A stretch of DNA of 64,000 bases from Candidatus Xenobia bacterium (GTDB lineage: Bacteria > Vulcanimicrobiota > Xenobia > Xenobiales > QWHO01): contig BTUM01000002.1 of assembly GCA_045863235.1 (NCBI GenBank), forward strand, positions 189,941 through 253,940. The letters are read 5' to 3'. This document shows positions 26,814 through 43,058 of the stretch, piece by piece. A program made the translations under genes and the position numbers. Numbering within the stretch: position 1 is the first letter of the stretch; every line of letters starts with the position of its first letter. The notes under the pieces are model-generated. The model saw nothing but the letters and a program-made list of their open reading frames with translations. It ran no database searches and was not told the origin of the DNA.

Positions 26814-26945
26814 TCAGGGCCACATCGGAGTGGACGGCCCGCTGGCCAGCGTCCTGGCCTCGGGCCGGGCATGCTCGGCGAACAGCACGGCTGAAACGAA
26901 GAGCAGCATCCAGTAAAGAGGCGTTCGGAGGATCTCGGAGAGCAT
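26814..26945 (-). pseudogene. 43-aa ORF, probable N-terminal remnant of a Ca2+/H+ exchanger (CAX/ChaA type)
   Basis: [33 protein letters not shown] resembles the first TM segment of bacterial calcium/proton exchangers (recognised from memory, not searched). Confidence 0.45.
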
Positions 26946-26952
26946 GATGACG

Positions 26953-26994
26953 ATTCTAGGATTTCCCGTCTTCAGCGGCTATGATCTGAATCAG
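26953..26994 (-). promoter_or_regulatory. FNR/CRP-family class II promoter
   Basis: Box ATGAT-CTGA-ATCAG at 26981-26994, 22 bp from -10 TAGAAT at 26953-26958 (minus strand). Confidence 0.65.
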
Positions 26995-27109
26995 CGTCGG
27001 GCTTCCTGGAACCAAACCGCGTCTCCTGCCTCGAAACGGAGGACCCCCTGCCCGAGCGCAGAAGCGACGGAGCGCTTTGCCAAGGTCTACTCTCCTGGAA
27101 CGGCCCGCC

Positions 27110-28296
27110 ATGACTTCCATCCTGGAAATCAGTCTTCGGGCAGGCAAGATCATGCTGGAGAACGGGGGCAACACGTCGCTGGTCGAGGAATCGATCCAGC
27201 GCCTGGGAACCGGCCTGGGAGCCGACTCGGTAGAAGTCAGCGTGAATCCCGGGAGCATCGTCGCCTCGCTGGTCTCAGGGCAAGAGCAAGAGACGCGCCT
27301 TCGACGCGTCAGCCAGAGCGGGGTGGAGCTCTCCAAACTGGCCCGGGTGCTGCACCTGGTATCCGGGGTGGAGAGCGGAAAGATGTCGGCGTCAGAGGCC
27401 GAGAGCGAGCTGCAGAGGATTGAGGGATTGTCACGCCAGTATCCCCCTGGCTGGTGGCCCTGGCAGTCGGGCTCGGATGCGGCGCGTTCGCCGTGAACCT
27501 GGGTGGAACGGCCCGAGATTTCTACGTCGTGCTGGTAACCTCTTCGCTGGCCCAGCTGCTGCGGCACCATCTCGCCCACACCCGGCTGGGAAGGCTGCTC
27601 ACCACGGTGGTGGTGGCCGCCTTTGCCAGCGCCACCGCGCTGGCTCTGGCCGGGCCAGGTGTGAGCGTAGCCGCCTCGATCCTGCTGCTGGTTCCCGGGG
27701 TTCCGCTGGTGAGCAGCACGGCCGACCTCTTCCGCGGAGACGTCACCGCGGGTCTGACCCGAGCGACCAGTGCGCTCCTGACCATCATCGCAGCAAGCGT
27801 GGGGGTCTGGGGGGTCATCCTGGCCTGGGGACGTCCGGCAGAAAGCGGTGTCCTGCCCGGCCAGGATCAGGTGCTGCTGGCCGCCTTGATGGGAGGGGTG
27901 GCAGCGGTTGGTTTCGCGGTCCTCTTCGATGTGCCCCGGCGGTATCTGCTCGGCTCGGGCCTGGTCGGCCTGGTGGCCATCCTGACGCGCGCCTCGGTCG
28001 CTGCCCACGCATGGCCAGCGGAGGTGGCCAATCTTCTGGCTGGTTTCTCCATCGGTCTCTCGTCCGAATTGCTGGCCCGTCGAGCAGGTTGCCCCTACTC
28101 GTTCATGGCCATGCCAGGCTACATTCCGCTGGTGCCTGGAGCTGTCTTCTTCAGCGGAATCCTGCACCTGGTGGCGGGAGATTACCTGCAAGGTCTTGCC
28201 TCGCTGATCCAGGCCCAGATCATTTTGCTGGCCATCGCTCTGGGGATGGGCAGCATCCCGGCCTTATTCTCGACCAGTCGCAAGGCGATCGCATGA
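27110..28296 (+). pseudogene. Threonine/serine exporter ThrE family (fused YjjP/YjjB type), split by a frameshift
   Basis: GKIMLENGGNTSLVEE in one frame; LLLVPGVPL and IPLVPG in the next. The frames join if the C5 run at 27443-27447 were C6. This could be a sequencing error. Confidence 0.75.
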
Positions 28297-30044
28297 CAGG
28301 AGGCGTTGTGGAGAATTCAAACAAGTCGGGGCTGGCGCGGTTCATGCCGGCTCTGGGTTGGCTGCCCACCTACCAGAAGACCTATCTTGTCGCCGACCTG
28401 ATCGCCGGTCTGACGCTGGCCGCCTACATGGTTCCGGCGGCCATCGGAGACGCCTCGCTGGCCAACCTGCCTCCGGAAGCCGGGCTCTACGCCTGCCTGT
28501 TCCCGGGACTGATCTTCTGGCTCTTTTGCAGCTCACGGCACACGACCATCTCGGTCACATCGGCCATTTCGCTCTTGATCGGCTCCTCGCTGGGGGCCAT
28601 GGCCGGAGGCAACAACGAACGCTTCTACGCTCTGGCCACGACCACCGCACTGCTGGTGGGGATCATCGGGGTGGTGGCCTGGGCCGTGCGGGGGGGCGCG
28701 GTCGTGCACTTCGTCTCCGAGACGGTCATGCTGGGGTTCAAGTGCGGGGTGGCCCTCTTCCTGGCCAGCACCCAGTTGCCCAAGCTGTTTGGCGTGCACG
28801 GCAGCCACGGCGACTTCTGGGAGCGCTCGGCAACCTTCCTGGGCGAGCTGGGTCACACCAACCCGGCCTCGCTGGCGGTAGGCGCGGTGGCCCTGGCCAT
28901 CCTGGTACTGGGCAAGATGTACGCGAAAGACAAGCCAGTGGCCCTCTTCGTGGTGGTGGGAGGCATCGTGGCCTCTTCAGTGGCTCGACTGGGCGAGCGC
29001 GGGGTCAAACTGCTCGGCGACGTTCCCGAGGGCCTCCCCATGCCGGGCCTGCCGATGGTTTCGTTGGCCGACCTCCAGGAGCTGATGCCGTTGGCGCTGG
29101 CCTGCTTCATGCTGGGGGCGGTGGAAACGGCCGCCATCGGGCGAATGTTCGCCGCCAAGCACCGGGGCCGCTTTGACTGCAACCAGGAGTTTCTGGCCAT
29201 CGGAGCCGTCAACCTGGCCACGGGGCTCACCCGGGGATTCCCGGTCAGCGGCGGGATGTCCCAATCGCTGGTCAACGAAAGCAGCGGAGCCCGCACTCCC
29301 CTGTCGGGCCTGTTTGCCAGCCTGATGGTACTGATCGTCACCGTCTTCCTGGCCTCCTTACTGCACAACCTGCCCCAGCCGGTGCTGGCGGCCGTGGTGC
29401 TGGTGGCCATTCTGGGGCTGATCAACGTGCCCGCCCTGAAGCGCCTCTACGCCCTGGCCCGCACCGAGTTCTTCATCGCCATGGCGGCCACGGCCGGGGT
29501 TCTGAGCTCGGGCATGCTACGCGGGGTCATGATCGGGGCGGTCATCTCGCTCTTGCTCTTGATTCGCCGGGCCTCGTCCCCCTACGTGGCGTTTCTGGGT
29601 CGCATTCCAGGCACGCAAAGATTCTCGGACATGGCCCGCCACCCCGATAACGAGCCCGTCGAGGGAATCTTGATCTTCCGGGCCGAGTCGAGCCTGCTCT
29701 ACTTCAACGCCGAGCATGTGCGAGACGTGGTCCTGGAGGAGTTCCACCGCACTCATCCCCGGCTGGTCCTCTGCGACCTGTCCAGCTCCCCATTCGTCGA
29801 CCTGCACGCCTGTGAGACCCTGGCCGAGCTGGCCAGGGAAGTGGCCGGCGAAGGAGCCCGCTTGCGCCTCGTGGAGCCTCGCTCCTCGGTGCGGGACTCT
29901 TTGCGCCTGGCGGGGCTGGAGGAGCTGGTGGGGTCCATCAACCGATTCACCACCGTCGCCGAGGCCGTGGAGGAGTTCCATCAGGCGCCAGGGGCTCAGC
30001 AGGAACCAGGATCAGAGCCAGCGGCCCAGGAGCCGGCCTCCTGA
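28293..30044 (+). CDS. sulP: SulP/SLC26 anion transporter with STAS domain
   Basis: DLIAGLT, PEAGLYA, NQEFLAIG, GARTPLSG motifs and C-terminal STAS; ATGA overlap with the ThrE stop (alternative GTG start at 28308). Confidence 0.93.
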   Translation: MTGGVVENSNKSGLARFMPALGWLPTYQKTYLVADLIAGLTLAAYMVPAAIGDASLANLPPEAGLYACLFPGLIFWLFCSSRHTTISVTSAISLLIGSSLGAMAGGNNERFYALATTTALLVGIIGVVAWAVRGGAVVHFVSETVMLGFKCGVALFLASTQLPKLFGVHGSHGDFWERSATFLGELGHTNPASLAVGAVALAILVLGKMYAKDKPVALFVVVGGIVASSVARLGERGVKLLGDVPEGLPMPGLPMVSLADLQELMPLALACFMLGAVETAAIGRMFAAKHRGRFDCNQEFLAIGAVNLATGLTRGFPVSGGMSQSLVNESSGARTPLSGLFASLMVLIVTVFLASLLHNLPQPVLAAVVLVAILGLINVPALKRLYALARTEFFIAMAATAGVLSSGMLRGVMIGAVISLLLLIRRASSPYVAFLGRIPGTQRFSDMARHPDNEPVEGILIFRAESSLLYFNAEHVRDVVLEEFHRTHPRLVLCDLSSSPFVDLHACETLAELAREVAGEGARLRLVEPRSSVRDSLRLAGLEELVGSINRFTTVAEAVEEFHQAPGAQQEPGSEPAAQEPAS

Positions 30045-30094
30045 TGGCCAACCAGCCACCAGGCTCTCGTGATGAAGAGAGCCGAGCCACCGGT

Positions 30095-30152
30095 ATATAA
30101 ATAACTAAAGTCCCGCGCGTTGCCCCTGTTCAGAGTGAAAACGCGCGGGACT
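30095..30152 (-). terminator. Rho-independent terminator of the DUF3300/DUF2950/TPR operon
   Basis: 13-bp perfect stem AGTCCCGCGCGTT/AACGCGCGGGACT (30109-30152) followed on the minus strand by a U-rich tract. A second GC hairpin lies at about 30165-30201. Confidence 0.7.
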
Positions 30153-30219
30153 GTGCCGATTCTACAGCTGCGCGCGCTGGTCAGACCAGTGCGCGCAACT
30201 GCAGGCCGTGGTCAGGGGG

Positions 30220-31173
30220 CTACTTCAGAACGTCGAGACGGTTCTTGACATAGGCATCCATCAAGAACAGGTTCTTGTTCTCTCCCAGAGCTTTGGTCAC
30301 GTAGGCTTTGCCTTTGTCCGTCTGTCCGTTCATGATGAAGTACTGACCGACGAAGAAGTCGGCCTGGTGCTGCATCATCTCGCGATAGCGCTCGTCGCTG
30401 AGGTTGACGGCGGCTTTCAGGCACTCATCGGGACCGATCTGGCCGAGGTACATCTGCACCACCGGATACGGCCAGCTCTCCTTCTCGGTGGCGCGCTGGG
30501 CGTAGCTCTGGAGGTAGGTCTTGTCCTGGGTGCCGAGGCGAGCCTTGGCCACGTAGTTGAGCAGGATCAGCATGGTGTTGTCGGGCTCGAGATTGGCGGC
30601 GGCTTCGAAATCATCCAGAGCGGCCTGGTTGCGCTCCATGCGAACGTAGGCCATCCCTCGCAGGGCGTAGACCACGGAACGCTTGGCCAGACCAAAAGAG
30701 ATGGCCTTGCTGGTATCCGACACGCACAGGTCGAGCTGGTTCAGACGGTAGTGAGCCAGACCACGATAGAAGTAGCCGGCTCCGCTCTCGGTCTGAATCT
30801 TCAAGAAGCGGTCATAGTCCTTGATGGCCTCCTTCGAGTCGCCTTTGAAGAGGTAGGCGCAGCCGCGATAATAGAGGGCCTCGGGGTTCTCGGGATCGAG
30901 CTGAAGAGCCTTATCGAGATCGCCGATGGCCTTCTGGTGCTGGTCCAGCAGAAAGTAGCTGGCGCCGCGGAAAACGAAGGCTTTGACGAAGCCCGGGTTG
31001 GCCTTGATGCACTTGTCGAAGCCCTTGATGGCTTCGGCATAATCTCCCTCTCGGAAAACCTTGTAACTCTCATCGTAGAGCTTCCGGGTATCGACCGCGT
31101 TGGCCTGGGCGAATGCTGGCGTGACCACCAGCAGCATCCAGAGCAAACAGGTAGTGAGTTGGGATCGTTTCAC
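30220..31173 (-). CDS. Secreted TPR protein, NlpI-like
   Basis: Signal peptide AFA-Q; several TPR repeats; C-terminal WPYPVVQMYLG...ADFFVGQY. Confidence 0.8.
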   Translation of the reverse strand: MKRSQLTTCLLWMLLVVTPAFAQANAVDTRKLYDESYKVFREGDYAEAIKGFDKCIKANPGFVKAFVFRGASYFLLDQHQKAIGDLDKALQLDPENPEALYYRGCAYLFKGDSKEAIKDYDRFLKIQTESGAGYFYRGLAHYRLNQLDLCVSDTSKAISFGLAKRSVVYALRGMAYVRMERNQAALDDFEAAANLEPDNTMLILLNYVAKARLGTQDKTYLQSYAQRATEKESWPYPVVQMYLGQIGPDECLKAAVNLSDERYREMMQHQADFFVGQYFIMNGQTDKGKAYVTKALGENKNLFLMDAYVKNRLDVLK

Positions 31174-31206
31174 AATGGACTCCTTCTGTATTGAGTTCGT
31201 TCGGGC

Positions 31207-32121
31207 TCAGTCCTTGGAGACCAGAACCCAGTCCTTGCCAGGATTGTAGACGGTCATCTTCTCGGCCAGCAGGGCCGTGTCGGGACCGAGGTCGGCCTGG
31301 CGAATCTGCCCGTAGTGGTTGAGCAGAAAGCTCATGATACCGCTCTTGCGATAGTCCACCGGGTAGGCCAGCACGGCGTAACCCAGGATCATGTTGCCGT
31401 TGATGATGTAGTTGAACTTGCCTCCCGGAGCGGCGGGGCCCTGGGCGGTCAGAAGCTTCAGCCGATAGCCCATCCAGGTTCGGTCGTGGGTCTTACGCTG
31501 CAGGTACTCCTTGACGGTCTCGGCGAACGACTCCATCGGACTCGGTTCGCCTTCTTTGGCATCCCAGTAGAGACCGTCGCGCTTGCCCGGCGAGCACTTC
31601 AACTTCTGGGCGAACTCGAAGACGCCATCCTCATCCCAGTCTTTGGAAGCGTACTGCATCTGGGCCTCGGCCATGGCTCGAAGCAGCTTGATGACGGCCA
31701 GCTCGTTGCGACCGACGCGTCGGCGCAACACCTCGTCGTAGCCGGCCTCGGTGTCGAACTTCCAGCCCTTCTTGGTATGAACGAGCGGGACGGGAAAAGG
31801 CCAGACTTCCTCTCCTACTACCCAGGTCAGGGTTCCGTTCTTCTCCTTCTGGAGAGCGGAGCGCTTCTCAGAGGCCCGGGCGATGCGCTCGCGCAGAATG
31901 CCGGACTCGGCCTGGTCGGCTGTCTCGAGCAACTCCCGCGCCTCGGGCCCGAAGATGGCCAGAATCTGTTGCTCGTTGTCGCTATCGAAGGCCCTGACGA
32001 CGGCTTTGACAGCCTCCTCAGGCGTGGGGAAGGTCTTTTGATCGGCCAGTCCCGTTCCCATCAGGGAAAAGGCCAGGACGGCGGTGGTGAGAATACGCTT
32101 GAACATTTTCATCCTCCTCAA
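31207..32121 (-). CDS. DUF2950 family exported protein
   Basis: FPTPEEAV, WPFPVPLV, RRVGRNEL, GKRDGLYW and AYPVDYRKSGIMSF motifs. Confidence 0.88.
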   Translation of the reverse strand: MRRMKMFKRILTTAVLAFSLMGTGLADQKTFPTPEEAVKAVVRAFDSDNEQQILAIFGPEARELLETADQAESGILRERIARASEKRSALQKEKNGTLTWVVGEEVWPFPVPLVHTKKGWKFDTEAGYDEVLRRRVGRNELAVIKLLRAMAEAQMQYASKDWDEDGVFEFAQKLKCSPGKRDGLYWDAKEGEPSPMESFAETVKEYLQRKTHDRTWMGYRLKLLTAQGPAAPGGKFNYIINGNMILGYAVLAYPVDYRKSGIMSFLLNHYGQIRQADLGPDTALLAEKMTVYNPGKDWVLVSKD

Positions 32122-33455
32122 CGTCTGCGACCTCCGCCGCCCCCGCGCCGGGCGCCACCTCCTCCGCTGTAGCCACCCGATCGTCCGCTGGAACGGTAGC
32201 CGCTGCTGCGTCCGGTCGAGCGATTGAAGCTGGCGTTACCGCGGCTGCTGCTGGCGCGGGCCGAAGAACCACGCTCCATCTGCAGGCCGCCACCCCGGCC
32301 GCCCATGTCGCGGTAACCGCCGCTCCCGCCGCTGCGGAAGCTCGGAGAGGAAACGGAGGGCCGAGTGGAGGCGGTGGGCCGAGTGCGGCCCACACTGGTG
32401 TAATCCGGCCGCATCCGGGAGGTATTGAAACTGGGACTGCTCGGCAGGGCAGGCCGGCTCCCCACGCCACCGGGTCTTCCGACTCCGCCGGGGCTCCCGA
32501 CGCCGCCAGGGCTCCCGATGCCACCGGGTCTTCCGACTCCGCCCGGGCTCCCGACTCCGCCGGGTCTCCCGACCCCGCCAGGGCTCCCGATGCGTCCCGG
32601 ACTGCCGACGTTGGGTCGGTTCCCGATGCGGTTGCCCCCCCCAACGTTGATCGAGTTGCCGATGTTGACGTTGCCGTTGTTCCAACGCACATTGTTACCG
32701 TTCCCGGCCACGGGGCGGCGGTTGAAGGCCTGATTGGCGCGATACGGGGTTGCCACCGGGCAGCCCGGGCGATACCATCCATTGGCACCGCAGGGCCAGT
32801 AACCCGAGGTCATTCCGTAGCCCCACCAGTTGCAGTGGTTGTAGTACATCAAGCTGCTGGCAGCGATGCCCGCTCCGAACCCGAGGATTCCCGAGGCCCA
32901 GTAGTCGTCGTCATTGTCGTAGCTCGACTCGACCACCACCACCTCGGGATCGTAGCTGGGTACGTAGACCACCTCGGGATTGGTGGGCTGAATGCAGATC
33001 TGCTCCTCCTCGCGGGTGACCTCCATCTGCTCGCCGCTGCGGAGATTGCCGGCTTGATAAGCCTTCTCGCGATACTGCTGAACCGCTTTCATGACATCGG
33101 GCTGCTGGTTGGCGACCGCGTAAGCCAGAGCAGCGGTCCAGTCGGAAGCCGACACCATGGTGTCCAGAATGTCCGGGTAGTCGACCAGCGAGCGCACGGC
33201 AGGCTCCCACTCCTCCGGCGATTCTTCGGAGGTCTTTCCCGCCTTGGCCAGCTCGTCGGCCTGGCGAACCTGGGCCTGCTCGGTCGAGGCGACCAGCACG
33301 TTGGACAGCACCGGGTCGGGGTAAAGAGCGATCGGCCCCACGATCTGCTCGAGCTCTTCGGGCGAGTAGAGCCCGTCAGCCGCCTCCTCCTGGGCCAGCG
33401 CCAGCGAGCCCAGCAGAACGGTCAACAAAGTGATCAGGAATATCAATCTTCGCAT
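32118..33455 (-). CDS. DUF3300 family exported protein
   Basis: ELEQIVGPIALYPDPVL and VVYVPSYDP motifs; Gly/Arg-rich tail. Confidence 0.9.
   Translation of the reverse strand: MRRLIFLITLLTVLLGSLALAQEEAADGLYSPEELEQIVGPIALYPDPVLSNVLVASTEQAQVRQADELAKAGKTSEESPEEWEPAVRSLVDYPDILDTMVSASDWTAALAYAVANQQPDVMKAVQQYREKAYQAGNLRSGEQMEVTREEEQICIQPTNPEVVYVPSYDPEVVVVESSYDNDDDYWASGILGFGAGIAASSLMYYNHCNWWGYGMTSGYWPCGANGWYRPGCPVATPYRANQAFNRRPVAGNGNNVRWNNGNVNIGNSINVGGGNRIGNRPNVGSPGRIGSPGGVGRPGGVGSPGGVGRPGGIGSPGGVGSPGGVGRPGGVGSRPALPSSPSFNTSRMRPDYTSVGRTRPTASTRPSVSSPSFRSGGSGGYRDMGGRGGGLQMERGSSARASSSRGNASFNRSTGRSSGYRSSGRSGGYSGGGGARRGGGGGRRR
32457..32610 (-). repeat. Degenerate 18-bp coding tandem repeat (GGVGSP/GGVGRP, about 8 copies)
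   Basis: Visible in both the DNA and the DUF3300 translation. Confidence 0.85.
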
Positions 33456-33463
33456 CGCGCCTC

Positions 33464-34405
33464 CTACTTGACCGGCCGCTTGAGCGGCCCGACGGGATTG
33501 CCGGCCGAGTTCACCTCGGTCCAGCCCTTGCCGGGATCGAATTTGGTGATCTCGCGGACCAGGCTCTCGGTCTCCGGTCCCAGATCTCTTTGATAGATCT
33601 TGCCGTTGTGGTTCATGATGAAGGTCGTGATACCGGAGTTCCCATAGGCCATGGGCCAGGCGATGAACGCGTAGCCACCGATCAGGTTGCCATTGATGAG
33701 GTAGTCATACTTCCCCCCGGCGGCGTTCTCGCTCTGACCGTTGAGGAGCTTGCAGTGATAGCCGAACCAGCCCGAATTGGCCATCTTCCCGGCCAGGTAG
33801 TCCTTGAACTCTTCGGCGGTCGACTGCAATGGGCTGGGAAGCTCTTCGCTGACCCAGTAGAGGCCGTCGCGCGTCCCTTCGGTGGCCCGAATGCGCTGAG
33901 CGAACTCGAGCACCTGGTCGCCGTCATAGTCCACCGCGGCATAATCTTCCTGGGCCTGGGCCAGGCGCGAGAGCATCTTCAGGGCCTGCAGCTCATCCAG
34001 GCCGATGCGCCGGGCCAGAATCTCCTCTTTGCCTGCAGCCGTATCCCAGCGCCAGTAAGTGCCGTCGTGCACCAGAGGAATGGGGAAGGGCCAGACCTCC
34101 TCGCCCACCAGCCAGATGACCTGACCGTTCTTGCCTTCTTCAAAGTTCGACCGATCGGTGGCCGCCAGAGCGATGGTCTTGAGACGCTCGCGCTCAGCCT
34201 GCGGGTCGATGTCATTAAAAAGGTCCTGAGCTTCCGGACCGAGGATCTCCAGCATCCTGGCACGATCATCGGACATGAAGGCCGCGATCATCGCCTCGGC
34301 TGCCTGCTTCGGGGACCCGAAGGTTTTCTGCTCCTGAGCCGGAGTCAGCCCCGTGAGACCGCACACCAGCGCCAGGGCAACAAAAAGAACACGCATTGTC
34401 TTCAT
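33464..34405 (-). CDS. DUF2950 family exported protein (second copy)
   Basis: FGSPKQAA, WPFPIPLV, RRIGLDEL, RDGLYW and AWPMAYGNSGITTF motifs. Confidence 0.88.
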   Translation of the reverse strand: MKTMRVLFVALALVCGLTGLTPAQEQKTFGSPKQAAEAMIAAFMSDDRARMLEILGPEAQDLFNDIDPQAERERLKTIALAATDRSNFEEGKNGQVIWLVGEEVWPFPIPLVHDGTYWRWDTAAGKEEILARRIGLDELQALKMLSRLAQAQEDYAAVDYDGDQVLEFAQRIRATEGTRDGLYWVSEELPSPLQSTAEEFKDYLAGKMANSGWFGYHCKLLNGQSENAAGGKYDYLINGNLIGGYAFIAWPMAYGNSGITTFIMNHNGKIYQRDLGPETESLVREITKFDPGKGWTEVNSAGNPVGPLKRPVK

Positions 34406-35502
34406 CTGCGACCTCCTCCGCCACGCATTCCCCCACCCCCGCGCATGCCGCCACCCGAGCGCATGCTGGGACTGGAGCTCATGCTGCTTTGTCCGCGCGC
34501 GCTGGCCTGGCGTGCGTCGACGCCTCGTGAGTAGTTCAGGCCGCTGGAATACCCCCCGGTCAGACCGGACTGGGGAGCCGGCGGCCGGGTGGCCGGGCGA
34601 TAGGCGTTGGCGGCGCCGGCCGGTCGAGGTTGGGCCGTAGCAGGGCGATAGGCATTGGCGGCGCCAGCCGGTCGAGGTTGCGCCGTTGCCGGCCGGTAGG
34701 CATTGGCAGCGCCGGCCGGACGCACGGTGTTGACCCGAGCCGCATTGTAGTTGTTGACGTTAACGCGGTTCACGTTGACATTGTTGACCCTGCCGGGGTA
34801 GGCAGCCGCACGTCCCGCGTAGGGAGCCGGCCGGGGAGCCCAGGCCGCCGCTCCGGGCGGATAGCTCCCGTATCGGTAGCCGCGATAAGCGCCAGGAGCA
34901 CCGTAATAGATGCCCTGGTGCCAGTCGCAGGCGCCGCTCCAGTAAGCGTTCCGCACCGCCACCGCGGTGCCGTACGTCAGCAGAGCGCCGGTGGCGTACA
35001 TCGCCGAGGTATCGTAGCTCGGGACGTAGACCTGATCCTCGGAAGGGGACTGGATCACGATCACGTCCCCTTCCTGGCTGACCTGCATCTGGTCGGAGGA
35101 CTGCAGGTTACCGGCCGCCTGGACCTTGCTCCGGACCTGCTGGACGGCCCGCAGCACATCGTCCTCCTGGTTGGCCACGGCGTAGCCGATGGCGTCGGTC
35201 CACTGGGTGTTGTCCACCATCATGGCCAGCACGTCGGGGAACTCCATCAAGGCCTGGACCGAGGGGGCCATGTCCGAGCCGGGTGATCCTCCGGACTGAC
35301 TCAACTCGAGCGCGGTGCGCAACTGGGTGGGCTCGGTCGAGCCTGTCAGAACGTGCGTCAAAAGGGCATCCGGGTAGAGCGCGACAGGCTCGACGAGTTG
35401 CTCGAGCTCTGCGTCGCTGTAATGGTCAGCGGTCACCTGTGCCTTCAGGGGACCGCTCAGGAACAGGGCCAGCACGATCGCTGCCCAACATCTGAGGAAC
35501 AT
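34402..35502 (-). CDS. DUF3300 family exported protein (second copy)
   Basis: ELEQLVEPVALYPDALL and VYVPSYD motifs; RGGG tail; start revised to the ATG at 35502 with GGAGG RBS. Confidence 0.88.
   Translation of the reverse strand: MFLRCWAAIVLALFLSGPLKAQVTADHYSDAELEQLVEPVALYPDALLTHVLTGSTEPTQLRTALELSQSGGSPGSDMAPSVQALMEFPDVLAMMVDNTQWTDAIGYAVANQEDDVLRAVQQVRSKVQAAGNLQSSDQMQVSQEGDVIVIQSPSEDQVYVPSYDTSAMYATGALLTYGTAVAVRNAYWSGACDWHQGIYYGAPGAYRGYRYGSYPPGAAAWAPRPAPYAGRAAAYPGRVNNVNVNRVNVNNYNAARVNTVRPAGAANAYRPATAQPRPAGAANAYRPATAQPRPAGAANAYRPATRPPAPQSGLTGGYSSGLNYSRGVDARQASARGQSSMSSSPSMRSGGGMRGGGGMRGGGGRR
34590..34722 (-). repeat. 48-bp coding tandem repeat (RPAGAANAYRPATAQP, about 3 copies)
   Basis: Identical peptide units encoded with synonymous DNA differences. 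Confidence 0.85.
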
Positions 35503-35552
35503 CCTACCTCCTGGTGCCAGGAACCCACTTCTCTGGCTGACTGAATATGCCC

Positions 35553-35594
35553 ACGGTAGCGGGCACCGCGGGGTCCGGCTATGATCTGAATCAG
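35553..35594 (-). promoter_or_regulatory. FNR/CRP-family class II promoter of the DUF3300 operon
   Basis: Box ATGAT-CTGA-ATCAG at 35581-35594, 22 bp from -10-like TACCGT at 35553-35558 (minus strand). Confidence 0.62.
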
Positions 35595-35652
35595 GGGAAC
35601 GGTCCCGTGGTTCTCCCCGCCCAGAGGAACCCCTCTCGCACACGGAGCCAGA

Positions 35653-35694
35653 ATGATCTAGATCATCGACCAGTGCCCACAATTGACGCACCAT
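35653..35694 (+). promoter_or_regulatory. FNR/CRP-family class II promoter of the Pro-rich protein gene
   Basis: Perfect palindrome ATGATCTAGATCAT at 35653-35666, 22 bp from -10-like CACCAT at 35689-35694; ATG at 35704. Confidence 0.55.
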
Positions 35695-35703
35695 GACCTT
35701 GCT

Positions 35704-36666
35704 ATGAAAAGAATGATTGCGCTTCTTCTGCTGGCTCTCTCACTGGCGACGCTGGCCCTGGTTCCAGAGCAGGGCCAGACCGTCGGCAGCCTGAGTCAAA
35801 GCCCGCGCAGCCCCTACTGGGTGGCTCGGGTGATCTCCAACAGTCTGGCTCCAGGCGATCGAGTCTCGATCCGACGCAACGGCAGAGAGCTCTGCCAGGC
35901 CCGGGTGATCGAGGTCAGCGGCGAGCAGGCCATGCTCACGACCGGCCTTTCCTCCGCCCAGCCGGCTCGGGGGGATCAGGTCGTGTGGCTCGGGCACGGG
36001 GCGGTCGTGACCGATCCCTCCCATCCTCCGCTCCCAACCGCCGTGACGCCCCCTGCCCGGCGGGCCCCGGCGGCCTCCACGATGGCCACCAAATACGGAG
36101 ACCAGGGCAAACAGGTGGGTCAGCCCCAATCCTTCAGCCCGCCCACCTTCCAGCCCCCCACCGCGCCGACCACCACATTCAACCCCCCTGGGCCCCCGTC
36201 GACCACGTTCCAGGGTCCTGCCTTCCAGCCCCCTACATCCTCCTCGACGACTTTCCAGCCACCCCAGGCCAGCAGCCAGACCTTCACTCCCCCGTCGGCT
36301 CCCGGTGTTGTACCCGGGCCGTTCGGGGTCACCAGCCTGTCCAAGCCGACCCCCCGGCGTGCCAGCACGCTGCCTCAGGACATCGGAATGCTGGATTCGC
36401 GCGGCCAGAAGGTGATCTTCCAGAAGCACAAAGCCAAGACCCGGGTCGTCATCGCCGGCAAGGGTTGGCCTCTGTCGGACACGTCCGGCCTCAAGAGCTC
36501 GGTCCGAGACGCTCAGATCGGCAAGTCCTCCACTCGCAAGCTCGGTGAGGTGACCGTAAAGTCCACCCCGAACCGGCTCCTGATGCGGGCCGGGAACGTG
36601 GAAGCGGCCTTCGAAGGAGACCAGAAACTGTCCAAGCTCGAGCGAGTGCTCTCAAACTGGCGCTGA
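35704..36666 (+). CDS. Secreted hypothetical protein with a Pro/Thr-rich FQPP-repeat linker
   Basis: Signal peptide MKRMIALLLLALSLATLA; repeated (T/S)F(Q/N/T)PP units between two small domains. Confidence 0.65.
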   Translation: MKRMIALLLLALSLATLALVPEQGQTVGSLSQSPRSPYWVARVISNSLAPGDRVSIRRNGRELCQARVIEVSGEQAMLTTGLSSAQPARGDQVVWLGHGAVVTDPSHPPLPTAVTPPARRAPAASTMATKYGDQGKQVGQPQSFSPPTFQPPTAPTTTFNPPGPPSTTFQGPAFQPPTSSSTTFQPPQASSQTFTPPSAPGVVPGPFGVTSLSKPTPRRASTLPQDIGMLDSRGQKVIFQKHKAKTRVVIAGKGWPLSDTSGLKSSVRDAQIGKSSTRKLGEVTVKSTPNRLLMRAGNVEAAFEGDQKLSKLERVLSNWR

Positions 36667-37956
36667 GCCAGTCTTCTGCTCGACCTGCAGGGCCGGGGCG
36701 GCCGAGCCGCCCAGGCCCTGCAAATCTTTCGAGCTGGCCTGCTCTCGGTCCTCATCGTCTGGAAAGCTACGAGCCACCGAACGGTCGAGCAGCTCCAGCT
36801 GCTCCCGCAGGGCCGGCTGTCGCCCCGGCGGCATCACTTTGAGAAGGTGCTCGAGCAGCGCTCGCATCCGCCTTGCGATCTGGATGTTTCCCGCGCCGAA
36901 CTGACGAATCTCGGCCAACCCGAGCCAGACGAAGTCTTCCCAGTCAGGGGTGCGAAAGACCAACCGCAACCGGCCTTGACTGTCAGAAACGCAGCCGGTA
37001 TCGAGCCGGCGAAGCCCCGTGAGGCGAAGCAACAGATGGACCTGATCCAGGGCCAGCACCCCGGTCGTCGGATCGTTGATCGCCCGCGACAGAGCCCGGC
37101 AGGCCACGTCCACGATGATGCGAAAGGCAAAGGCGGGATCTTGCTCCATGGTGCGCTCGTCCCCCAGGGCCAGGCAGCGTCTCAAGACGTCGGGGGAGAG
37201 GCGAGTCGAGCCATAAATCCGGAACAGACCGTCCCCGTGCACCACGAAATCACCAACCTGCGGCATCAGCTCGATGATTGCGTTTTCCTGGCTGGCCAGG
37301 GTGAGCAGCCCCTCCTGGTCAAAGGCCAGCAAGACGCTCGAGCGCCCGATGTGCTCCACCACCAGGGCCGTGCTCGGGTCAGGAAGAGACTGCGAGACCG
37401 CCCGTGGGCCTTCATCGAGCATCAACGGGTAGACGCTTTTGATCACTTCGGCCCCTTTGCCCGCGATCAGCGTGAGAATGGAGATGGGACGAAGAGACCT
37501 GGCCAGTCGATCCACCATGTAGAGGAAGACGATAATGGAGCCAAGGCTGCTCCAGATGCAAACCTGCAGCTCGATGAGCGGGGTCTGCGTGCCGATGCGC
37601 GAGAGCACCGCCAGGCTGAAGGTAAAGTTGAACACGAAGATGCCCAGACATGTCCGAATTCCAGGCTCTTTGAGGGCCAGGGCGATGATGCGGGGGGACA
37701 ACTGGGCGCTGGCCAGTTGCACCGCTACCAGCAGAGCAGACGACACGAACACGATGAACGTCAAGAGAGACGAGGACAGGGCTCCGATCACAGCGCGAGC
37801 AGCGTCGGGCTCCGTGGCTGCGTTCCAGCCCATGGCACGACCGACCAGGTACAGGACCCGATGGGAGGCCAGCGCCAGGATGAGCCCGAGCGTGGAGCTG
37901 ACCCACATGGAGTTGGACAAGAAATGCCGGTAGCGATAGCGCTGGAGCCAGGTCAT
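36652..37956 (-). CDS. DUF2254 family membrane protein
   Basis: VAVQLASAQLSPR, ERTMEQDPAFAFRIIVDVACRALSRAINDPTT motifs. Confidence 0.88.
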   Translation of the reverse strand: MTWLQRYRYRHFLSNSMWVSSTLGLILALASHRVLYLVGRAMGWNAATEPDAARAVIGALSSSLLTFIVFVSSALLVAVQLASAQLSPRIIALALKEPGIRTCLGIFVFNFTFSLAVLSRIGTQTPLIELQVCIWSSLGSIIVFLYMVDRLARSLRPISILTLIAGKGAEVIKSVYPLMLDEGPRAVSQSLPDPSTALVVEHIGRSSVLLAFDQEGLLTLASQENAIIELMPQVGDFVVHGDGLFRIYGSTRLSPDVLRRCLALGDERTMEQDPAFAFRIIVDVACRALSRAINDPTTGVLALDQVHLLLRLTGLRRLDTGCVSDSQGRLRLVFRTPDWEDFVWLGLAEIRQFGAGNIQIARRMRALLEHLLKVMPPGRQPALREQLELLDRSVARSFPDDEDREQASSKDLQGLGGSAAPALQVEQKTGSAPV

Positions 37957-37987
37957 GCGAGCAGCCCTGGCATTCGCAGGCCGAAGG

Positions 37988-40900
37988 TCAGGAACCTGTC
38001 GCCAGGGGCTGGATCAACTCCAGGGCCTGATCAAAATCGAACCCGGTGGTCAGGCTATCCAGCCTCTGGTAAACATCGGCTCCCAACGCCGTCTGAAGCA
38101 GCCCGGCATTGGTCCGCACCAGATCGGCCGCCGCGCCGTCGCCGCTGGCGAGCTTCTCGGCCAGCTCCTTGAGCAGCGCAGCCGCCTTCTGCAGGTCGGC
38201 CGCGTTCGAAGCGGGAGAGACAGCCTGAGCGCGCCCGCCCAGGTATTTGAAGAGCAGCCGGTACAGCTCCTCGGGCTCGACCGGCTTGGCCAGGTGGTCA
38301 TTCATGCCGGCCTCCACGCAACGATCGCGATCTTGCTGCATGGCATTGGCCGTCATGGCCACGATGGGCAGGCTCTGGCAGCGTTCGAGCTTGCGGATCT
38401 CCCGGGTGGCCGTCACTCCGTCCATGACCGGCATCTGCATGTCCATCAAGACCAGCTCGTAGGGGCGTTCCTGGACCATCTCGACAGCCCTTTGACCGTT
38501 GTCGGCCACGTCCACCAGCAGGCCACCCTCGGCCAGAAGACCCAGGGCCACCTCCTGATTGAGCTCGTTGTCCTCCACCAGCAGCACGCGCGCTCCGCGA
38601 AGCTGGCTCAACTGAGCCCCGCTTGTTTGGCCCGGGGGCTGCGGCGGGTGGCTCTCGCCAGCCCCTCCGAGCACCCGGCCCACGCTGTCAAACAAGGTCG
38701 AGGCAGTGACCGGCTTGAGCAGGAACTCCTCCAGACCAGCCTGCTCGGCTTCCTGCATGACCTCCTCCCGAGCGTAAGCGGTCACCATGATCAGGTGGGG
38801 CGGCCTCTCCTGGCCCAGAGCCCGGATGGCGTGGGCGGTCTGGATGCCGTCCATGCCCGGCATGCGCCAGTCCAGGAAGACGATCTCGTAGGGATGGCCG
38901 GTCTTTGCCGCCCGAGCCACCTCGTCCACTGCTTCGGCCCCACTGGCGACCTGATCGACCGTCAAATGCATCCCGCTGAGCAGATCGTCGAGCAGTCGGC
39001 GGGCCGCCTCGTTATCGTCCACCACCAGCACCCGCCGGCCCCGCAGCTCCGGAGCCAGCACGCGCTTGCGAGCGACCGCGGCCGATTTGCGCAGCCTGGC
39101 CGTGAACCAGAAGGTGCTGCCCTTGCCGACCTGGCTCTCCACGCCCACCTCGCCCCCCATCAGGTGGGCCAGTTGCTTGGAGATGGCCAGGCCCAGGCCG
39201 GTGCCACCGTACTTGCGGCTGGTGGAGGTGTCCGCCTGTTGGAACGACTGGAAGAGGCGGGCCATCTGCTCGGCGGTCAGACCCACCCCCGTGTCCTGAA
39301 CCGAGGCCTTGATCAGGACGTCGTGATCAGTCTGCTCCAGAGCGCGCACGTCGATCACGATCTCGCCCTTCTCGGTGAACTTGACCGCGTTGTTGGAATA
39401 ATTGATCAAGATCTGGCCGAGCCGCAGCGAGTCTCCCGTCAGCGCGCTGGGCAGGTCGGGGGCGACCCGGAAGACCAGCTCCAGTCCTTTGGCGGCAGCC
39501 TTCTCGGAGACCAGAGTGGAGACGCTGGTCAGCATGTCCTCGAGGTTGAAGTCGGCTTCCTCGATGGTCAATCGGCCCGCTTCGATCTTGGAGAAGTCCA
39601 GAATGTCGTTGATGATTCCCAGCAGGTGCTGGCCCGACTGCTGGATCTTGCTCAGATAGTCTCGCTGGCGCGCATTGAGCTCGGTCTTCAAGGCCAGGTG
39701 TGCCATGCCGATGATGGCGTTCATCGGAGTTCGGATCTCGTGGCTCATGTTGGCCAGGAAGTCCGACTTCATACGGGTCGCGTCCTCGGCCGCCTGCATG
39801 GCCTGGCGCAGCTGCGCGGCAACCTTCTCGCGCTCGCTGACGTCGCGCAGGCTGACGCAGGTGCAGGTGCCCTTGCCTCCCAGGCTGGGCAGGGTACTGA
39901 GGCTGACCTCCAGGGGGAAGACAGAGCCGTCCCTGCGCAGGCCCGAACGCTGCTCGACCACGCCGAAGCTCAGGTCCCCGGAGCTCTCCATCAGCTGGGA
40001 AAGAGAAAGGCCAACCAGCTCGCCGGGCTGGTAGCCGAAAGTCACCTCGCTGCGAGGATTCGACAAAACGATCTTGGAGTGCTCATCCAGCACCAGCATG
40101 CTTTCGGGCGCAGACTCGATGATGCGACGATACCACTCCTCGGTCTGCTTCAGCTCGGCCTGCTGAGCATCGAGCTCGACCGCCTGCTCTTCGAGCTGAG
40201 CAGCCTGGGCCTCCATGCGCCGGGCCTGGGCCTGGGTCTCGGCCAGCAGGTGCTGGGTGTCCAGGCTGCGGGCCAGGTTGCTCAGGTTGAGGGCCAGAAT
40301 GGGCAGCAGGCCTTCAAGCAGAAGCTGCTCACGAGCGGTCAGAGACCGAAAGGCCGCCAGCTCTAAAACGCCCAACGCGGTGTCGGCATGGAAGATGGGC
40401 AGGGCAGTGATCGCGGAAGGCACTGCCTGGCCGAGTCCGGAATTGATCTGCACGTAGTCGGGGGGCGGATGGGTCAGGGTGATGGGCTGACCTTCCAGCA
40501 CGCACTGGCCCACCAGGCCCTCCCCCACGGCAAAGGATTGGCTGAGATTCTTGCGCTCGCGGTAGCCGTAGCTGGCCAGCAGCCTGAGCCGCTTCTCGGC
40601 CTGGTCATAGTGATAGAAGACGGCGTGCCCGACCTCGAGCAAAGGAGCCAGGCCGGACAAGACCGTCTGCGCCATCTCCTGAAAGGTCTCGGCCTCCTGC
40701 ATCCGGGTGGAGAGCGTGCTCAGATGCGACTTGGCCCATCCCTCCCCCTGGAGAGCCCGGGCACTCTCCTGCAAGACGACCACCGAGCGAGCCAGGCTGC
40801 CGATCTCATTGTGGTAGGTTGTTCCCGGCACGACCACCTCGAGGTTGCCCTGCGACAGGTCGAGCACGCTTTTTCGAAGCTCCTCGATGGGGCGGCGCAC

Positions 40901-41557
40901 CGATGTCGCGATGAGAAAGCCTCCACTCGTGGCGACGGCAAAGGCCAGGGCCAGAATCAGCAGATCGGTCTTGCGACCGGATTCGGTCACCTGGCTGACC
41001 CGCTCGGCCGCTTCCTGAGCCGCTTCCTCCCTCAGTGTGGCGATGCGGGCCAGAAGCTCGTAGGTGTTATCGATCCGGGCTTCAAAACGGGGGTCGAAGA
41101 TCTCCTCAATCGCAGCTCGCTGATCGTCGCCAGGCTTGCCAAGTCGGGAGATCACCTCCTGAATTGCCTTCAGGTAGTCTTCAAGAACGGCTTCAAACTC
41201 GATGACGAGCAGTCCGATCTTGCTGCTGCGGTCCAGGTCGGCCGAGCCCTCCTCGAACTCCCGGCGCAGCCCCACCCGAAATTGCTCGATTCTGGCCAGG
41301 CTCGCCTGGCGGGCATCCTGAGTGGGAGCCAGAATCGCGTGCCGAAGGGACCGGCCGATGTTAACCAGGTTGATATTGGCCTGTTTGAGGTGGGAGATCC
41401 CTCTCAGCTCCTGGCGATAGATGCGCTCGGCCTCACGATGGATGATTCGTTGGGACTGCATCGCCCGAAAGCCGATCAACAAGATCAGGGCCAGCAAGAA
41501 ACCGAAGCCCACCAGCAGCTTGGTGTCCAGTTTCAGCGAATCGAGGCGTCGGGTCAT
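37988..41557 (-). CDS. Hybrid sensor kinase: 4HB_MCP-HAMP-GAF-coiled coil-PAS-HisKA-HATPase-2xREC
   Basis: Start revised to the ATG at 41557 (ATGA overlap with cheBR); [18 protein letters not shown]; two receivers. Confidence 0.9.
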   Translation of the reverse strand: MTRRLDSLKLDTKLLVGFGFLLALILLIGFRAMQSQRIIHREAERIYRQELRGISHLKQANINLVNIGRSLRHAILAPTQDARQASLARIEQFRVGLRREFEEGSADLDRSSKIGLLVIEFEAVLEDYLKAIQEVISRLGKPGDDQRAAIEEIFDPRFEARIDNTYELLARIATLREEAAQEAAERVSQVTESGRKTDLLILALAFAVATSGGFLIATSVRRPIEELRKSVLDLSQGNLEVVVPGTTYHNEIGSLARSVVVLQESARALQGEGWAKSHLSTLSTRMQEAETFQEMAQTVLSGLAPLLEVGHAVFYHYDQAEKRLRLLASYGYRERKNLSQSFAVGEGLVGQCVLEGQPITLTHPPPDYVQINSGLGQAVPSAITALPIFHADTALGVLELAAFRSLTAREQLLLEGLLPILALNLSNLARSLDTQHLLAETQAQARRMEAQAAQLEEQAVELDAQQAELKQTEEWYRRIIESAPESMLVLDEHSKIVLSNPRSEVTFGYQPGELVGLSLSQLMESSGDLSFGVVEQRSGLRRDGSVFPLEVSLSTLPSLGGKGTCTCVSLRDVSEREKVAAQLRQAMQAAEDATRMKSDFLANMSHEIRTPMNAIIGMAHLALKTELNARQRDYLSKIQQSGQHLLGIINDILDFSKIEAGRLTIEEADFNLEDMLTSVSTLVSEKAAAKGLELVFRVAPDLPSALTGDSLRLGQILINYSNNAVKFTEKGEIVIDVRALEQTDHDVLIKASVQDTGVGLTAEQMARLFQSFQQADTSTSRKYGGTGLGLAISKQLAHLMGGEVGVESQVGKGSTFWFTARLRKSAAVARKRVLAPELRGRRVLVVDDNEAARRLLDDLLSGMHLTVDQVASGAEAVDEVARAAKTGHPYEIVFLDWRMPGMDGIQTAHAIRALGQERPPHLIMVTAYAREEVMQEAEQAGLEEFLLKPVTASTLFDSVGRVLGGAGESHPPQPPGQTSGAQLSQLRGARVLLVEDNELNQEVALGLLAEGGLLVDVADNGQRAVEMVQERPYELVLMDMQMPVMDGVTATREIRKLERCQSLPIVAMTANAMQQDRDRCVEAGMNDHLAKPVEPEELYRLLFKYLGGRAQAVSPASNAADLQKAAALLKELAEKLASGDGAAADLVRTNAGLLQTALGADVYQRLDSLTTGFDFDQALELIQPLATGS

Positions 41558-43008
41558 GAAGACCTCCGTTGATAGATCTTGTGGGCAGCATCCAGGGGCC
41601 GGAAGAGCGCCCCGGCAGCAACCGTCACCGTCTCCGACAGACCCAGGAAGAGAAGGCCCTCGCGGCGCAATGCGCCGTGGAACCGGGTAAGGAGCTGTTG
41701 CTGCAGCTCGCTCTTGAGGTAGATCAGAAGATTGCGGCAACTGATCAGCTCGAGATCCTGTGGGGCCTGCTCGTGGACCACGTCGTGGCGACGAAACTGA
41801 CAAAGCGCTTTGACTGCTGGCAAGACCTGGAAGTTGCTCCCATGTCTGGTGAAGCAACTGTCCCTGAGCTCGGGCTCGGTCTCCTCCAGGGAGCTCGCCG
41901 GATAGACAGCCTCCCGGGCCTGTTCCAGCGCCTCAGCGTTGAGATCGGTGCCCAGAATCTGAAACCTCTGGCACCTGTCTCCCAGGAGTCGCCAGGCCAG
42001 AATGGCCAGCGTGTAGCACTCCTCACCGGTCGCGCATCCGGGCACCCAGACCTGGAAGGGTTGCTCGGCCGGCCGCTCGGCCAGGCGCTGACCCAGCAGC
42101 TTCTCCAGAGCTGCGAAGCAATCCCGGTCGCGAAAGAAGGAGGAACGGGAGATCAGGAACTGGCCTGCGATCACCTCCGCTTCCCTCGAGTCCCGGTCCA
42201 GACAATGAAGATAAGCCTGCAGGGAGCTCTGCTTCAGGGCTGCGAGTCGAGTGTTGAGGCGACGCAGGAGCGTCTCTTCTTTGTAGCCGGTAAAGTCCAG
42301 ACCCGTCTTCTGGCGGATGCGCTGCAGAATCCGGTCAAGCTGATCGGTTGGCTCTGGCGGGGTGTCACTCAGGGCCTTGAGGGGGCCGAAGCCAGCCAGT
42401 CGCTCGGCCATCTGCCGGGGAGAAAGAACTTCATCCACCACCCCGGCCTCCAGGGCAGCCCGGGGCATTGCCGGGAAGCGCGCAGTGCCGGGCTCCTGAG
42501 CGATGGTCAGACCGCCAGCCTCGCGAATGGCGCGGCATCCAGCCACTCCGTCCGAGCCCGTTCCTGATACGATCATGCCGATGGCTCGAGGGCCGTAAGC
42601 TCGAGCCATGGATTCGAACAGCCGGCTCACCGAAGGGCGAGAAAGGCTCTCGGGTGCAGGAGCTACCCCGTGCAGCCGTCCAGCTTGAACCACAAAGTCG
42701 CCCCCGGCGGGAAGAAGGTAAATCCGGTCAGCTTGCAGTGCATCGCCGGTGGAAGCCAGCACCACCGGCAGTCGCGCCCCGCGCTCCAACAATCGTCCGA
42801 GCAGCTCGGCCTGCTCGGGAGCGCCCATGTGCTGGGCGATCACGTAGGCCACCTGTCCCGTGGGAGGCAGATAGGCCAGGAGCTCCCTGAGGGCTTCCAG
42901 GCCTCCGGCCGAAGCGCCGATGCCGGCCACGTAGAGCGGTCGCGTGCTGGCGCAGGCGTGGCCGACAGGCTGCGCCAGATCTCCATCGGGACTTCCTTTC
43001 CTCGGCAT
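41554..43008 (-). CDS. CheB methylesterase-CheR methyltransferase fusion
   Basis: CheB triad motifs GASAGG, AQHM, GTGSDG; CheR motifs SFFRD, WVPGCATGEE, GTDLN, ISCRNLLIY. Confidence 0.9.
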   Translation of the reverse strand: MPRKGSPDGDLAQPVGHACASTRPLYVAGIGASAGGLEALRELLAYLPPTGQVAYVIAQHMGAPEQAELLGRLLERGARLPVVLASTGDALQADRIYLLPAGGDFVVQAGRLHGVAPAPESLSRPSVSRLFESMARAYGPRAIGMIVSGTGSDGVAGCRAIREAGGLTIAQEPGTARFPAMPRAALEAGVVDEVLSPRQMAERLAGFGPLKALSDTPPEPTDQLDRILQRIRQKTGLDFTGYKEETLLRRLNTRLAALKQSSLQAYLHCLDRDSREAEVIAGQFLISRSSFFRDRDCFAALEKLLGQRLAERPAEQPFQVWVPGCATGEECYTLAILAWRLLGDRCQRFQILGTDLNAEALEQAREAVYPASSLEETEPELRDSCFTRHGSNFQVLPAVKALCQFRRHDVVHEQAPQDLELISCRNLLIYLKSELQQQLLTRFHGALRREGLLFLGLSETVTVAAGALFRPLDAAHKIYQRRSS

Positions 43009-43016
43009 GCTCGACC

Positions 43017-43058
43017 AGTCTAGAAGATCGCTCCGGGAGCCTCGATGATCAAGGTCAC
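43017..43058 (-). promoter_or_regulatory. FNR/CRP-family class II promoter of the cheBR-kinase operon
   Basis: Box ATGAT-CAAG-GTCAC at 43045-43058, 22 bp from -10 TAGACT at 43017-43022 (minus strand); ATG at 43008. Confidence 0.55.

Follow-up and report, generated by a model that had tools for sequence, protein, structure and literature searches.

We describe four putative activator-binding sites in a stretch of 64,000 nucleotides from Candidatus Xenobia bacterium (GenBank assembly GCA_045863235.1, contig BTUM01000002.1, positions 189,941 to 253,940 of the forward strand), referred to below as the window. The genome very probably carries a low-oxygen regulon of class II promoters served by CRP/FNR-type factors, to which these sites would belong. 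The roughly 90 sites of the regulon are probably read by a FixK-like CRP/FNR activator, here called ETAIR after its recognition helix, placed under a predicted cascade headed by a haem-PAS kinase. The overall logic is known from FixLJ-FixK-like systems and the parts are new; the proteins involved differ from FNR, FixK, FixL and FixJ in defining features. In the literature (subscription papers and supplements being outside the scope of the search) we found no earlier outline of control by oxygen for this part of Eremiobacterota, an uncultured phylum.

Geometry of the window sites

The source genome (G000; 8.36 Mb, 65.8% GC; the window lies on its contig C2) was compared with relatives numbered G001 onward. 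Genes were called by a simple program of our own (7,246 genes, 88.5% coding). As reported in the initial annotation of the window, an identical 19-mer is present at 26976 and 35576, with no third copy in the 8.36-Mb genome, a perfect palindrome is present at 35653, and a fourth box at 43045. All four boxes are intergenic by our gene calls, and each 14-bp box is separated by exactly 22 bp from the −10-like hexamer that had been named for it. Box 1 (26981..26994, minus strand) lies upstream of pckA and has the hexamer TAGAAT (26953..26958). Box 2 (35581..35594, minus strand) lies upstream of a DUF3300/DUF2950 operon and has TACCGT (35553..35558). Box 3, the palindrome (35653..35666, plus strand), lies upstream of a gene for a proline-rich protein and has the non-consensus CACCAT (35689..35694). 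Box 4 (43045..43058, minus strand) lies right after an esterase stop codon upstream of cheBR and has TAGACT (43017..43022). The scores of boxes 1–4 with a matrix trained on the genome are 18.4, 17.2, 21.3 and 14.0 bits, box 4 being the weakest.

In the opposite orientation none of the four boxes has a −10-like hexamer at 22 bp. Hence box 1 was rejected as a site of the plus-strand gene thrE, and boxes 2 and 3 as sites acting in the opposite direction. A fifth match at 23206 (14 bits) was not counted, since it falls inside the reading frame of a broken glucosidase-like gene. The predicted transcription start (+1) was set at the seventh base after the hexamer. The predicted starts 26946, 35546, 35701 and 43010 place the centre of every window box at −41.5.

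Genome-wide spacing statistics

The sequence TGAT-N4-ATCA occurs 39 times in intergenic regions, compared with 3–16 occurrences for 12 other spacers. The palindromic matrix trained on the intergenic sites of G000 has the consensus TGA(T/C)C-NN-G(A/G)TCA, or TGA(T/C)C-NN-G(A/G)TCAT when the promoter-side end is included. It yields 97 intergenic sites scoring at least 16 bits, versus at most 6 for each of 12 column-permuted matrices, and the TGA-N6-TCA core typical of the class is thus enriched between genes. Downstream of 213 intergenic sites, TANNNT was found 61 times at 22 bp, 27 times at 23 bp and 7 times at 21 bp (Poisson p ~1e-74 for the peak); other spacings in the same set average 1.5 and never exceed 6. 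Among 1,156 matches in coding regions just 12 have TANNNT at 22 bp, and the intergenic enrichment that had been anticipated is therefore found. With the threshold set to at least 12 bits, 88 boxes spread over 40 contigs provide 94 promoter orientations.

Start codons are distributed non-uniformly after the −10 element. In-frame start codons at offsets 6, 7, 8 and 9 number 21, 11, 3 and 10, respectively, and 0–2 at any other offset; out-of-frame start codons at offsets 6–9 number 5. Since in-frame start codons peak at the predicted +1, this position and the −41.5 centre are fixed without being assumed, and the two peaks agree with the class II CRP/FNR-type placement proposed initially for the window sites. 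Roughly half of these genes behind boxes appear to be leaderless or nearly so.

CANNNT, the form of the hexamer at box 3, is weakly enriched genome-wide (10 at 22 bp and 9 at 23 bp versus 1–9 at other spacings). The proposal that the non-consensus CACCAT acts as a −10 element is supported by its retention in G002. The shared 19-mer was rejected as a special repeat. Two of 4,365 site pairs have 19 nt in common, one has 18 and three have 17; the 19-mer lies at the far end of a continuous range of shared lengths. Other palindromes enriched in the spacer scan of G000 are TTGA-N7-TCAA (55 intergenic and 16 coding occurrences), TGATC-N7-GATCA (11 and 4) and TGTGA-N6-TCACA (10 and 0).

Genes behind the boxes

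Outside the window, 85 first genes and 73 downstream genes behind boxes were scanned. Respiratory targets include ccoNOQP (cbb3 oxidase) and a second haem-copper oxidase with SCO; nitrogen-oxide targets include Sec-dependent nosZ with nosD, nirK, nnrS and Ric. Stress and dormancy are represented by seven CBS-domain genes, six USP genes, Hsp20, a ribosome hibernation factor and an Acg-family protein. Further targets are two PPK2 genes, WS/DGAT, malic enzyme, FTHFS, a di-haem peroxidase-like protein, a hydrogenase-like Fe-S operon and two Crp genes. USP genes lie behind a box in 6 of 23 cases, compared with 34 of 1,200 random genes (p 6e-5). The combination of a high-affinity oxidase with denitrification and dormancy genes is that of a low-oxygen regulon. 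The low-oxygen program suggested for the window therefore gains support, in a regulon far larger than four sites.

This set overlaps the core regulons of FixK, FNR and DNR (PMC2908626) and the table of FixK2 targets (PMC9104804). The position of nirK and the Sec-dependent N2O reductase gene under the boxes bears on nitrous-oxide turnover in treatment plants. The approximately 90 promoters of sharp geometry also give a low-oxygen context to about 30 genes without a known family. Eleven promoter orientations are concentrated on the 48-kb contig C60 in a low-oxygen island (G000:C60:1-32500; L085, L086), which carries genes for transhydrogenase, pyruvate:ferredoxin oxidoreductase, alcohol dehydrogenase, USP and FTHFS, the hydrogenase-like operon and an ETAIR gene.

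Two classes of boxes

The promoter-proximal flank is T (boxes ending TCAT) in 68 of the 94 promoter orientations, while TTGA..TCAA boxes form a minor class (16 of 94). The classes differ in spacing, as 12 of the 16 TTGA..TCAA boxes are at 23 bp from the hexamer and 58 of the 68 TCAT boxes at 21–22 bp (p 6e-6). Each of the four boxes in the window belongs to the class with TCAT ends and 22-bp spacing. The preference for ATGAT half-sites postulated in the initial annotation agrees with the flank counts, and is strict in the promoter-side half-site only.

TTGA..TCAA boxes precede nnrS, ric and the nirK operon. They constitute 5 of 7 sites on contig C81 and none of 11 sites on contig C60, where an ETAIR gene is located. 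The start codon of the Crp gene on C81 (C81:23593, helix TAETLSR) abuts a TTGA..TCAA box. Its product, which we take from its context to be Dnr-like, is the likely reader of this class.

Conservation and spread in relatives

Box 1 with TANNNT at 22 bp precedes pckA in G001 (99% identity), G002 (93%) and G019 (87%), the latter from another family. A second pckA copy of G001 has a box with CAGGAT at 22 bp, and the region is lost in G003. None of nine distant pckA genes (70–73% identity) has the box. Box 2 is retained in G002 with TAAGTT at 22 bp, and the second DUF3300/DUF2950 operon of G002 also lies behind a box. The site is degenerate in G003 and absent in G004, and the second G001 copy has no −10 element at 21–23 bp. 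Outside the genus the box was found at none of 18 DUF3300/DUF2950 loci, 4 of them having little or no upstream DNA in view, and two such loci from other phyla have no box. At site 3, the box, the 22-bp distance and CACCAT are kept in G002 (protein 83% identical) despite a diverged spacer. Close relatives of the proline-rich protein were found in G001 and G002 only among five genomes searched. At site 4, the box precedes cheBR in the near-identical G001 alone, where the ATG would come before the predicted +1. It is absent before cheBR of G002 and G019, and in G003 the box is kept without a −10 element and is not followed by cheBR. Of the expected conservation upstream of orthologs, only the pckA link thus extends to one other family. 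The window families of uncharacterised function are best described as peripheral, genus-level members of the regulon, given the poor conservation of their sites beyond the genus.

The pattern of box and −10 element was counted at the right and at a control spacing in 121 genomes. Within the genus the respective counts are 91 and 7, 83 and 4, and 61 and 4. In 13 genomes of family f2 they are 18–104 versus 4–18, and in genera g8 and g9, 15 and 2, 13 and 1, 15 and 1, and 5 and 2. In the small family-f3 genomes, and likewise in most other classes, this count gives no clear excess. In g8 and g9, 36 of 50 sites end in TCAT. By this comparison the box-to-−10 geometry is conserved across the order. 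Two records labelled 'uncultured Burkholderiales bacterium' (L031, L033) might suggest horizontal transfer; this was rejected, as their boxes and gene order match those of G002 and G003 from the same genus, and the records are probably mislabelled.

Candidate activators

G000 contains ten Crp-family genes above the Pfam cut-off. The ETAIR clade, in which the helix is mostly xET(A/V)IR, has members in all 12 pattern-positive genomes examined and none among the fetched Crp matches of 9 pattern-negative genomes. A class II box is present within ~1.5 kb at 12 of 23 ETAIR-clade loci; in three clades whose helix is of the CRP-type R-E kind, none of 35 loci has one. In G090, where all six Crp matches were fetched, the ETAIR member is the sole Crp protein that has Glu and Arg but lacks the CRP-type Arg, and 11 of 15 sites of this genome end in TCAT.

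The initial annotation expected a regulator with an ExxSR recognition helix. The best candidate clade does not have it: at the position of the FNR Ser, 20 of its 23 members have Ile, two have Thr and one has Val, and Ser is found in no member. The ExxSR helix is found in the proteins from contigs C1 and C81, and ExxSR proteins fit the second class of boxes better. The main contacts of FNR to TTGAT boxes are Glu209, Ser212 and Arg213 (PMC4505428), and the motifs of the FNR and CRP types are given as ExSR and RExxR, respectively (PMC3590769). Replacement of the Ser in the ETAIR helix may shift the outer base of the box. This idea fits G009, as its member has Thr and three of the four neighbouring boxes end in TCAG. 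Paired with an ATGA-flanked box, the ETAIR helix would extend the CRP/FNR recognition code, and the helix is common beyond this lineage, Ile being present in 117 of the 120 best database matches, one of which is labelled Chloroflexota. The two ETAIR proteins of G000 (C28 and C60) have a predicted CRP fold and lack the N-terminal and central Cys of the FNR cluster. Their scores with the FixK model are 41 and 53 bits (cut-off 300), and they are far below the FnrL cut-off as well.

The Crp protein from contig C1 (G000:C1:287540-288260; L047) has the helix TIESVSR, an N-terminal Cys cluster and a central Cys. The frame 5' of its called start adds four Cys, and members of its clade keep CxxCxxC and the central Cys. 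No ATG, GTG or TTG precedes the Cys-rich N-terminus; a CTG located 9 nt after AGGAG is the likely start codon. Another Crp protein, from contig C64 (G000:C64:8863-9744; L003), has an extra N-terminal helix-turn-helix-like region and the helix ARES(V/L)SR (ARESVSR), strongly conserved across the order.

Predicted haem-PAS kinase and 16-bp operator

The ETAIR gene on C28 is divergent from a NarL-type regulator gene (C28:77061-77699) and adjoins a kinase gene (C28:78903-80255). The kinase contains PAS and HisKA_3 domains. The PAS domain matches FixL haem-domain structures (E 1.7e-32). The His and Arg aligned with them are retained, and we take these to be the proximal His and the distal Arg. The full-length protein, with its HisKA_3 module, scores 143 bits against the FixL cut-off of 850, and the regulator scores 70 bits against 255 for FixJ and 185 against 250 for NarL. 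An activator that lacks the FNR cluster and is encoded beside an oxygen-sensing two-component system would correspond to the FixK arrangement, the control being suggested by gene position. Close relatives of the kinase are encoded in genera g1 and g4; those of G004, G013, G017 and G019 share a contig with an ETAIR gene. A second FixL-like PAS protein of G000 (C6:92159-94534; 50% identity to the kinase PAS) adjoins a class II box at C6:91858. In G004 the kinase (L226, G004:C83:1-3926) has two tandem FixL-like PAS domains and itself lies behind a class II box, possibly forming a positive feedback loop.

A 16-bp palindrome, TCC(T/G/C)CCT-WW-(C/A/G)GG(A/C)GGA, precedes both ETAIR genes of G000 and a STAS gene. 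These are the only exact matches in G000, and all three are intergenic. The palindrome occurs in 10 of 40 genomes, 8 of them from g1 and g4, with two stray matches elsewhere. It is located 46–48 or 69–71 bp before TANNNT in 13 of 16 loci; nine of them are upstream of an ETAIR gene, and one is directly upstream of ccoN.

Proposed mechanism and alternative explanations

As oxygen falls, the FixL-like haem-PAS/HisKA_3 kinase would phosphorylate the NarL-type regulator, which would bind the 16-bp palindrome upstream of the ETAIR genes C28:77851 and C60:15130 and induce both. Binding of the ETAIR dimer to the boxes would bring in sigma-70 RNA polymerase and activate transcription from −41.5. The Dnr-like ExxSR protein from C81 would read the TTGA..TCAA boxes at 23 bp before nitric-oxide genes, and the FNR-like protein from C1, whose gene is itself behind a box, may add direct sensing of oxygen. 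In the window, pckA-pfkA, the DUF3300/DUF2950/TPR operon and the proline-rich protein gene would be induced, and cheBR-kinase-DUF2254 least surely.

Several observations weigh against this scheme. The Crp clades were taken from a quick tree and cover 89 of the 102 Crp matches from 20 relatives, leaving out 13. The distribution of the C64 clade across genomes resembles that of the ETAIR clade, so presence across relatives does not single out the latter. The ExxSR protein from C1 could read the same sites, because loci of its clade carry boxes, of which 4 of 7 end in T. Since the 16-bp operator was found only in g1 and g4 plus strays, the regulon of g8 and g9 needs an explanation other than the kinase cascade. 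Among the first genes behind boxes, 33 of 85 have no Pfam family. A CRP-type class raises the pattern counts of family f2 unduly: 28 of 50 sites in G009 end in TCAC. Judged by sequence, the TCAC-ended sites of this genus (g2) represent a separate CRP-type class II regulon. Many TCAC-ended class II sites of G009 have TGA or CGA next.

RNA evidence comes from eight of 17 public runs, all of them assembled contigs. Window sequence is found in these RNA libraries, but transcription starts cannot be mapped from the contigs, and DNA may be present. Contigs of runs X3 and X4 end at 35526 and 35521, 20–25 nt short of the predicted start 35546. Those of X5 and X6, from one study, reach 35577, 31 nt upstream of it; one contig of X1 bridges site 4 and one contig covers box 3. 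Taken together, the contigs are in part contrary to the predicted starts. Relatives of the organism turn up in sludge and bioreactor RNA runs.

The same regulon might have the FNR-like C1 protein as its main activator, sensing oxygen directly by an iron-sulphur cluster; the ETAIR proteins would then play a minor part beside it. The Cys residues of this clade, its ExxSR helix and a class II box at 6 of 6 of its loci are in line with such a role, yet the clade was not found in G009, G088 and G090, which bear the pattern and where all six Crp matches were fetched in each. An ExxSR protein is moreover expected to favour TTGAT boxes (PMC4505428), which disagrees with the predominance of T at the proximal flank, and a box before the C1 gene fits a target as well as an autoregulator. 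We consider this assignment unlikely. Still less probable is a regulon with no single owner of the window sites, in which several CRP/FNR paralogues share the boxes and the main signal, in place of oxygen, is nitric oxide, redox or energy stress. The number of Crp-family genes and the presence of nitric-oxide and general stress genes among targets favour sharing, and in alphaproteobacteria the sites read by FNR, FixK and DNR are nearly the same (PMC2908626). Separation of the two classes by flank, spacing and location, with all window boxes in one class, and the adjacency of the haem-PAS kinase to an ETAIR gene point the other way.

It is very improbable that the window sites have no regulatory role and arose by chance or by copying of a short intergenic repeat. 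The shared 19-mer, the non-consensus CACCAT and the poor conservation of site 4 could be read in this manner, but the peaks of spacing and of start codons, the coherent set of targets, and the retention of box and −10 element while spacer sequences vary are left unexplained. Chance is excluded for the set as a whole, and a single site, most likely site 4, could be inactive. Reading by the ETAIR activator under the kinase cascade is thus preferred. It can be extended to a broader evolutionary reading, which taken whole we regard as tentative and rather doubtful. The ETAIR clade would be an undescribed oxygen-responsive CRP/FNR subfamily with its own code (Ser→Ile, TTGA→ATGA flanks), and its older members would sense oxygen via a CG(A/G)LC Cys motif in the ligand pocket, unlike the N-terminal cluster of FNR. 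Genera g1 and g4 would have lost this motif, the FixL-PAS/HisKA_3 kinase and the NarL-type regulator taking over in an independent invention of the FixLJ-FixK scheme, and DUF3300/DUF2950 would be low-oxygen envelope proteins in the genus. Clade members with the CG(A/G)LC motif include those of G030 and G009. The split between Cys motif and kinase is not strict: G019 has both kinds of genes, and a Cys-motif gene of G013 adjoins a PAS kinase.

Comparison with known systems

The closest known arrangements are FixLJ-FixK2 of Bradyrhizobium and FixLJ-FixK of Caulobacter, which share the haem-PAS kinase, the LuxR-type regulator and a CRP/FNR activator without the FNR Cys cluster (PMC9104804, PMC2908626, PMC4999443). 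Also shared are the 14-bp box with the TGA-N6-TCA core and, among targets, cbb3 oxidase, Hsp20, CBS, USP, nitroreductase and zinc alcohol-dehydrogenase neighbourhoods. In contrast to them, the kinase here is of the HisKA_3 type and the regulator scores higher to NarL than to FixJ, the helix is ETAIR and not ExxSR, and the boxes end in TCAT and not TCAA. The 16-bp operator differs from the FixJ and FxkR motifs (PMC4999443). The same source describes FixK and FixKf as independent instances in which the Fe-S cluster was lost and a two-component system was then recruited; the ETAIR lineage with its kinase would, by analogy, be a further case.

E. coli FNR, Pseudomonas ANR and FnrL/FnrN share the −41.5 box, the TGAT-N4-ATCA core and targets in anaerobic respiration (PMC4505428), and the C1 protein resembles this type. 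The ETAIR candidate differs in lacking the N-terminal Cys cluster and the Ser at FNR position 212, and the promoters in that about half are leaderless or nearly so. As in the Dnr/NnrR regulons (PMC2908626), the TTGA..TCAA subclass precedes nnrS, ric and the nirK operon, and it also occurs around the C81 gene; unlike there, it is a minor class and includes none of the four window sites. Within the literature scope given above, no description was found of ATGAT-N4 or N4-ATCAT boxes, of ETAIR with Crp/Fnr, of FixL with HisKA_3, or of a role of DUF3300/DUF2950. Nor was a regulon of this kind found described for this lineage, the parts of PMC11484240 and PMC8510549 that were covered included.

A different parallel is offered by dormancy control in Mycobacterium. 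In the DosS/DosT-DosR system, a haem kinase of the HisKA_3 type is paired with a NarL-type regulator, and the operators are in tandem. Its gene set is similar, with Hsp20, USP, CBS, Acg, WS/DGAT, a hibernation factor and a P-type ATPase. Unlike DosS/DosT, the haem domain here is a FixL-type PAS and not GAF, and the targets carry CRP/FNR boxes, with a Crp protein interposed.

Genes at the window sites

Downstream of box 1, on the minus strand, the predicted +1 adjoins a 43-codon open reading frame (26814..26945) without a Pfam match, which may be what is left of a membrane-protein gene after its deletion. It is followed by pckA, encoding ATP-dependent phosphoenolpyruvate carboxykinase (25154..26746; PF01293, TIGR00224 above cut-off), and by pfkA, encoding ATP-dependent 6-phosphofructokinase (23790..25094; PF00365, NF005301 above cut-off). 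The next gene (22980..23752, minus strand) has no Pfam match, and its name, glucosidase, is the label of the initial annotation, which we presume to be right. It was listed there among the co-activated genes, which does not hold, as it is a frameshifted, shortened remnant that ends at about codon 245 of 865. The break is seen in a three-frame translation and in BLAST against two full-length paralogues on C5 and C111. A DUF433/DUF5615 pair comes after the break in this gene (window 22099-23752), which suggests that an insertion truncated it. On the other side of box 1, thrE (window 27110-28296) is split into two overlapping frames near 27454-27496, both matching PF06738; it is either a frameshifted gene or an assembly error.

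Box 2 precedes a minus-strand operon of five genes (30220..35502), defined by Pfam and gene calls: DUF3300 (34402-35502), DUF2950 (33464-34405), DUF3300 (32118-33455), DUF2950 (31207-32106) and a TPR protein (30220-31137). The plus-strand gene behind box 3 (35704..36666) starts 3 nt downstream of the predicted +1. Its proline-rich product has a hydrophobic N-terminus and no family match, and is likely secreted. The minus-strand operon behind box 4 (36652..43008) encodes, by Pfam, a CheB-CheR fusion (41554-43008), a hybrid histidine kinase (37988-41557) and a DUF2254 protein (36652-37956).

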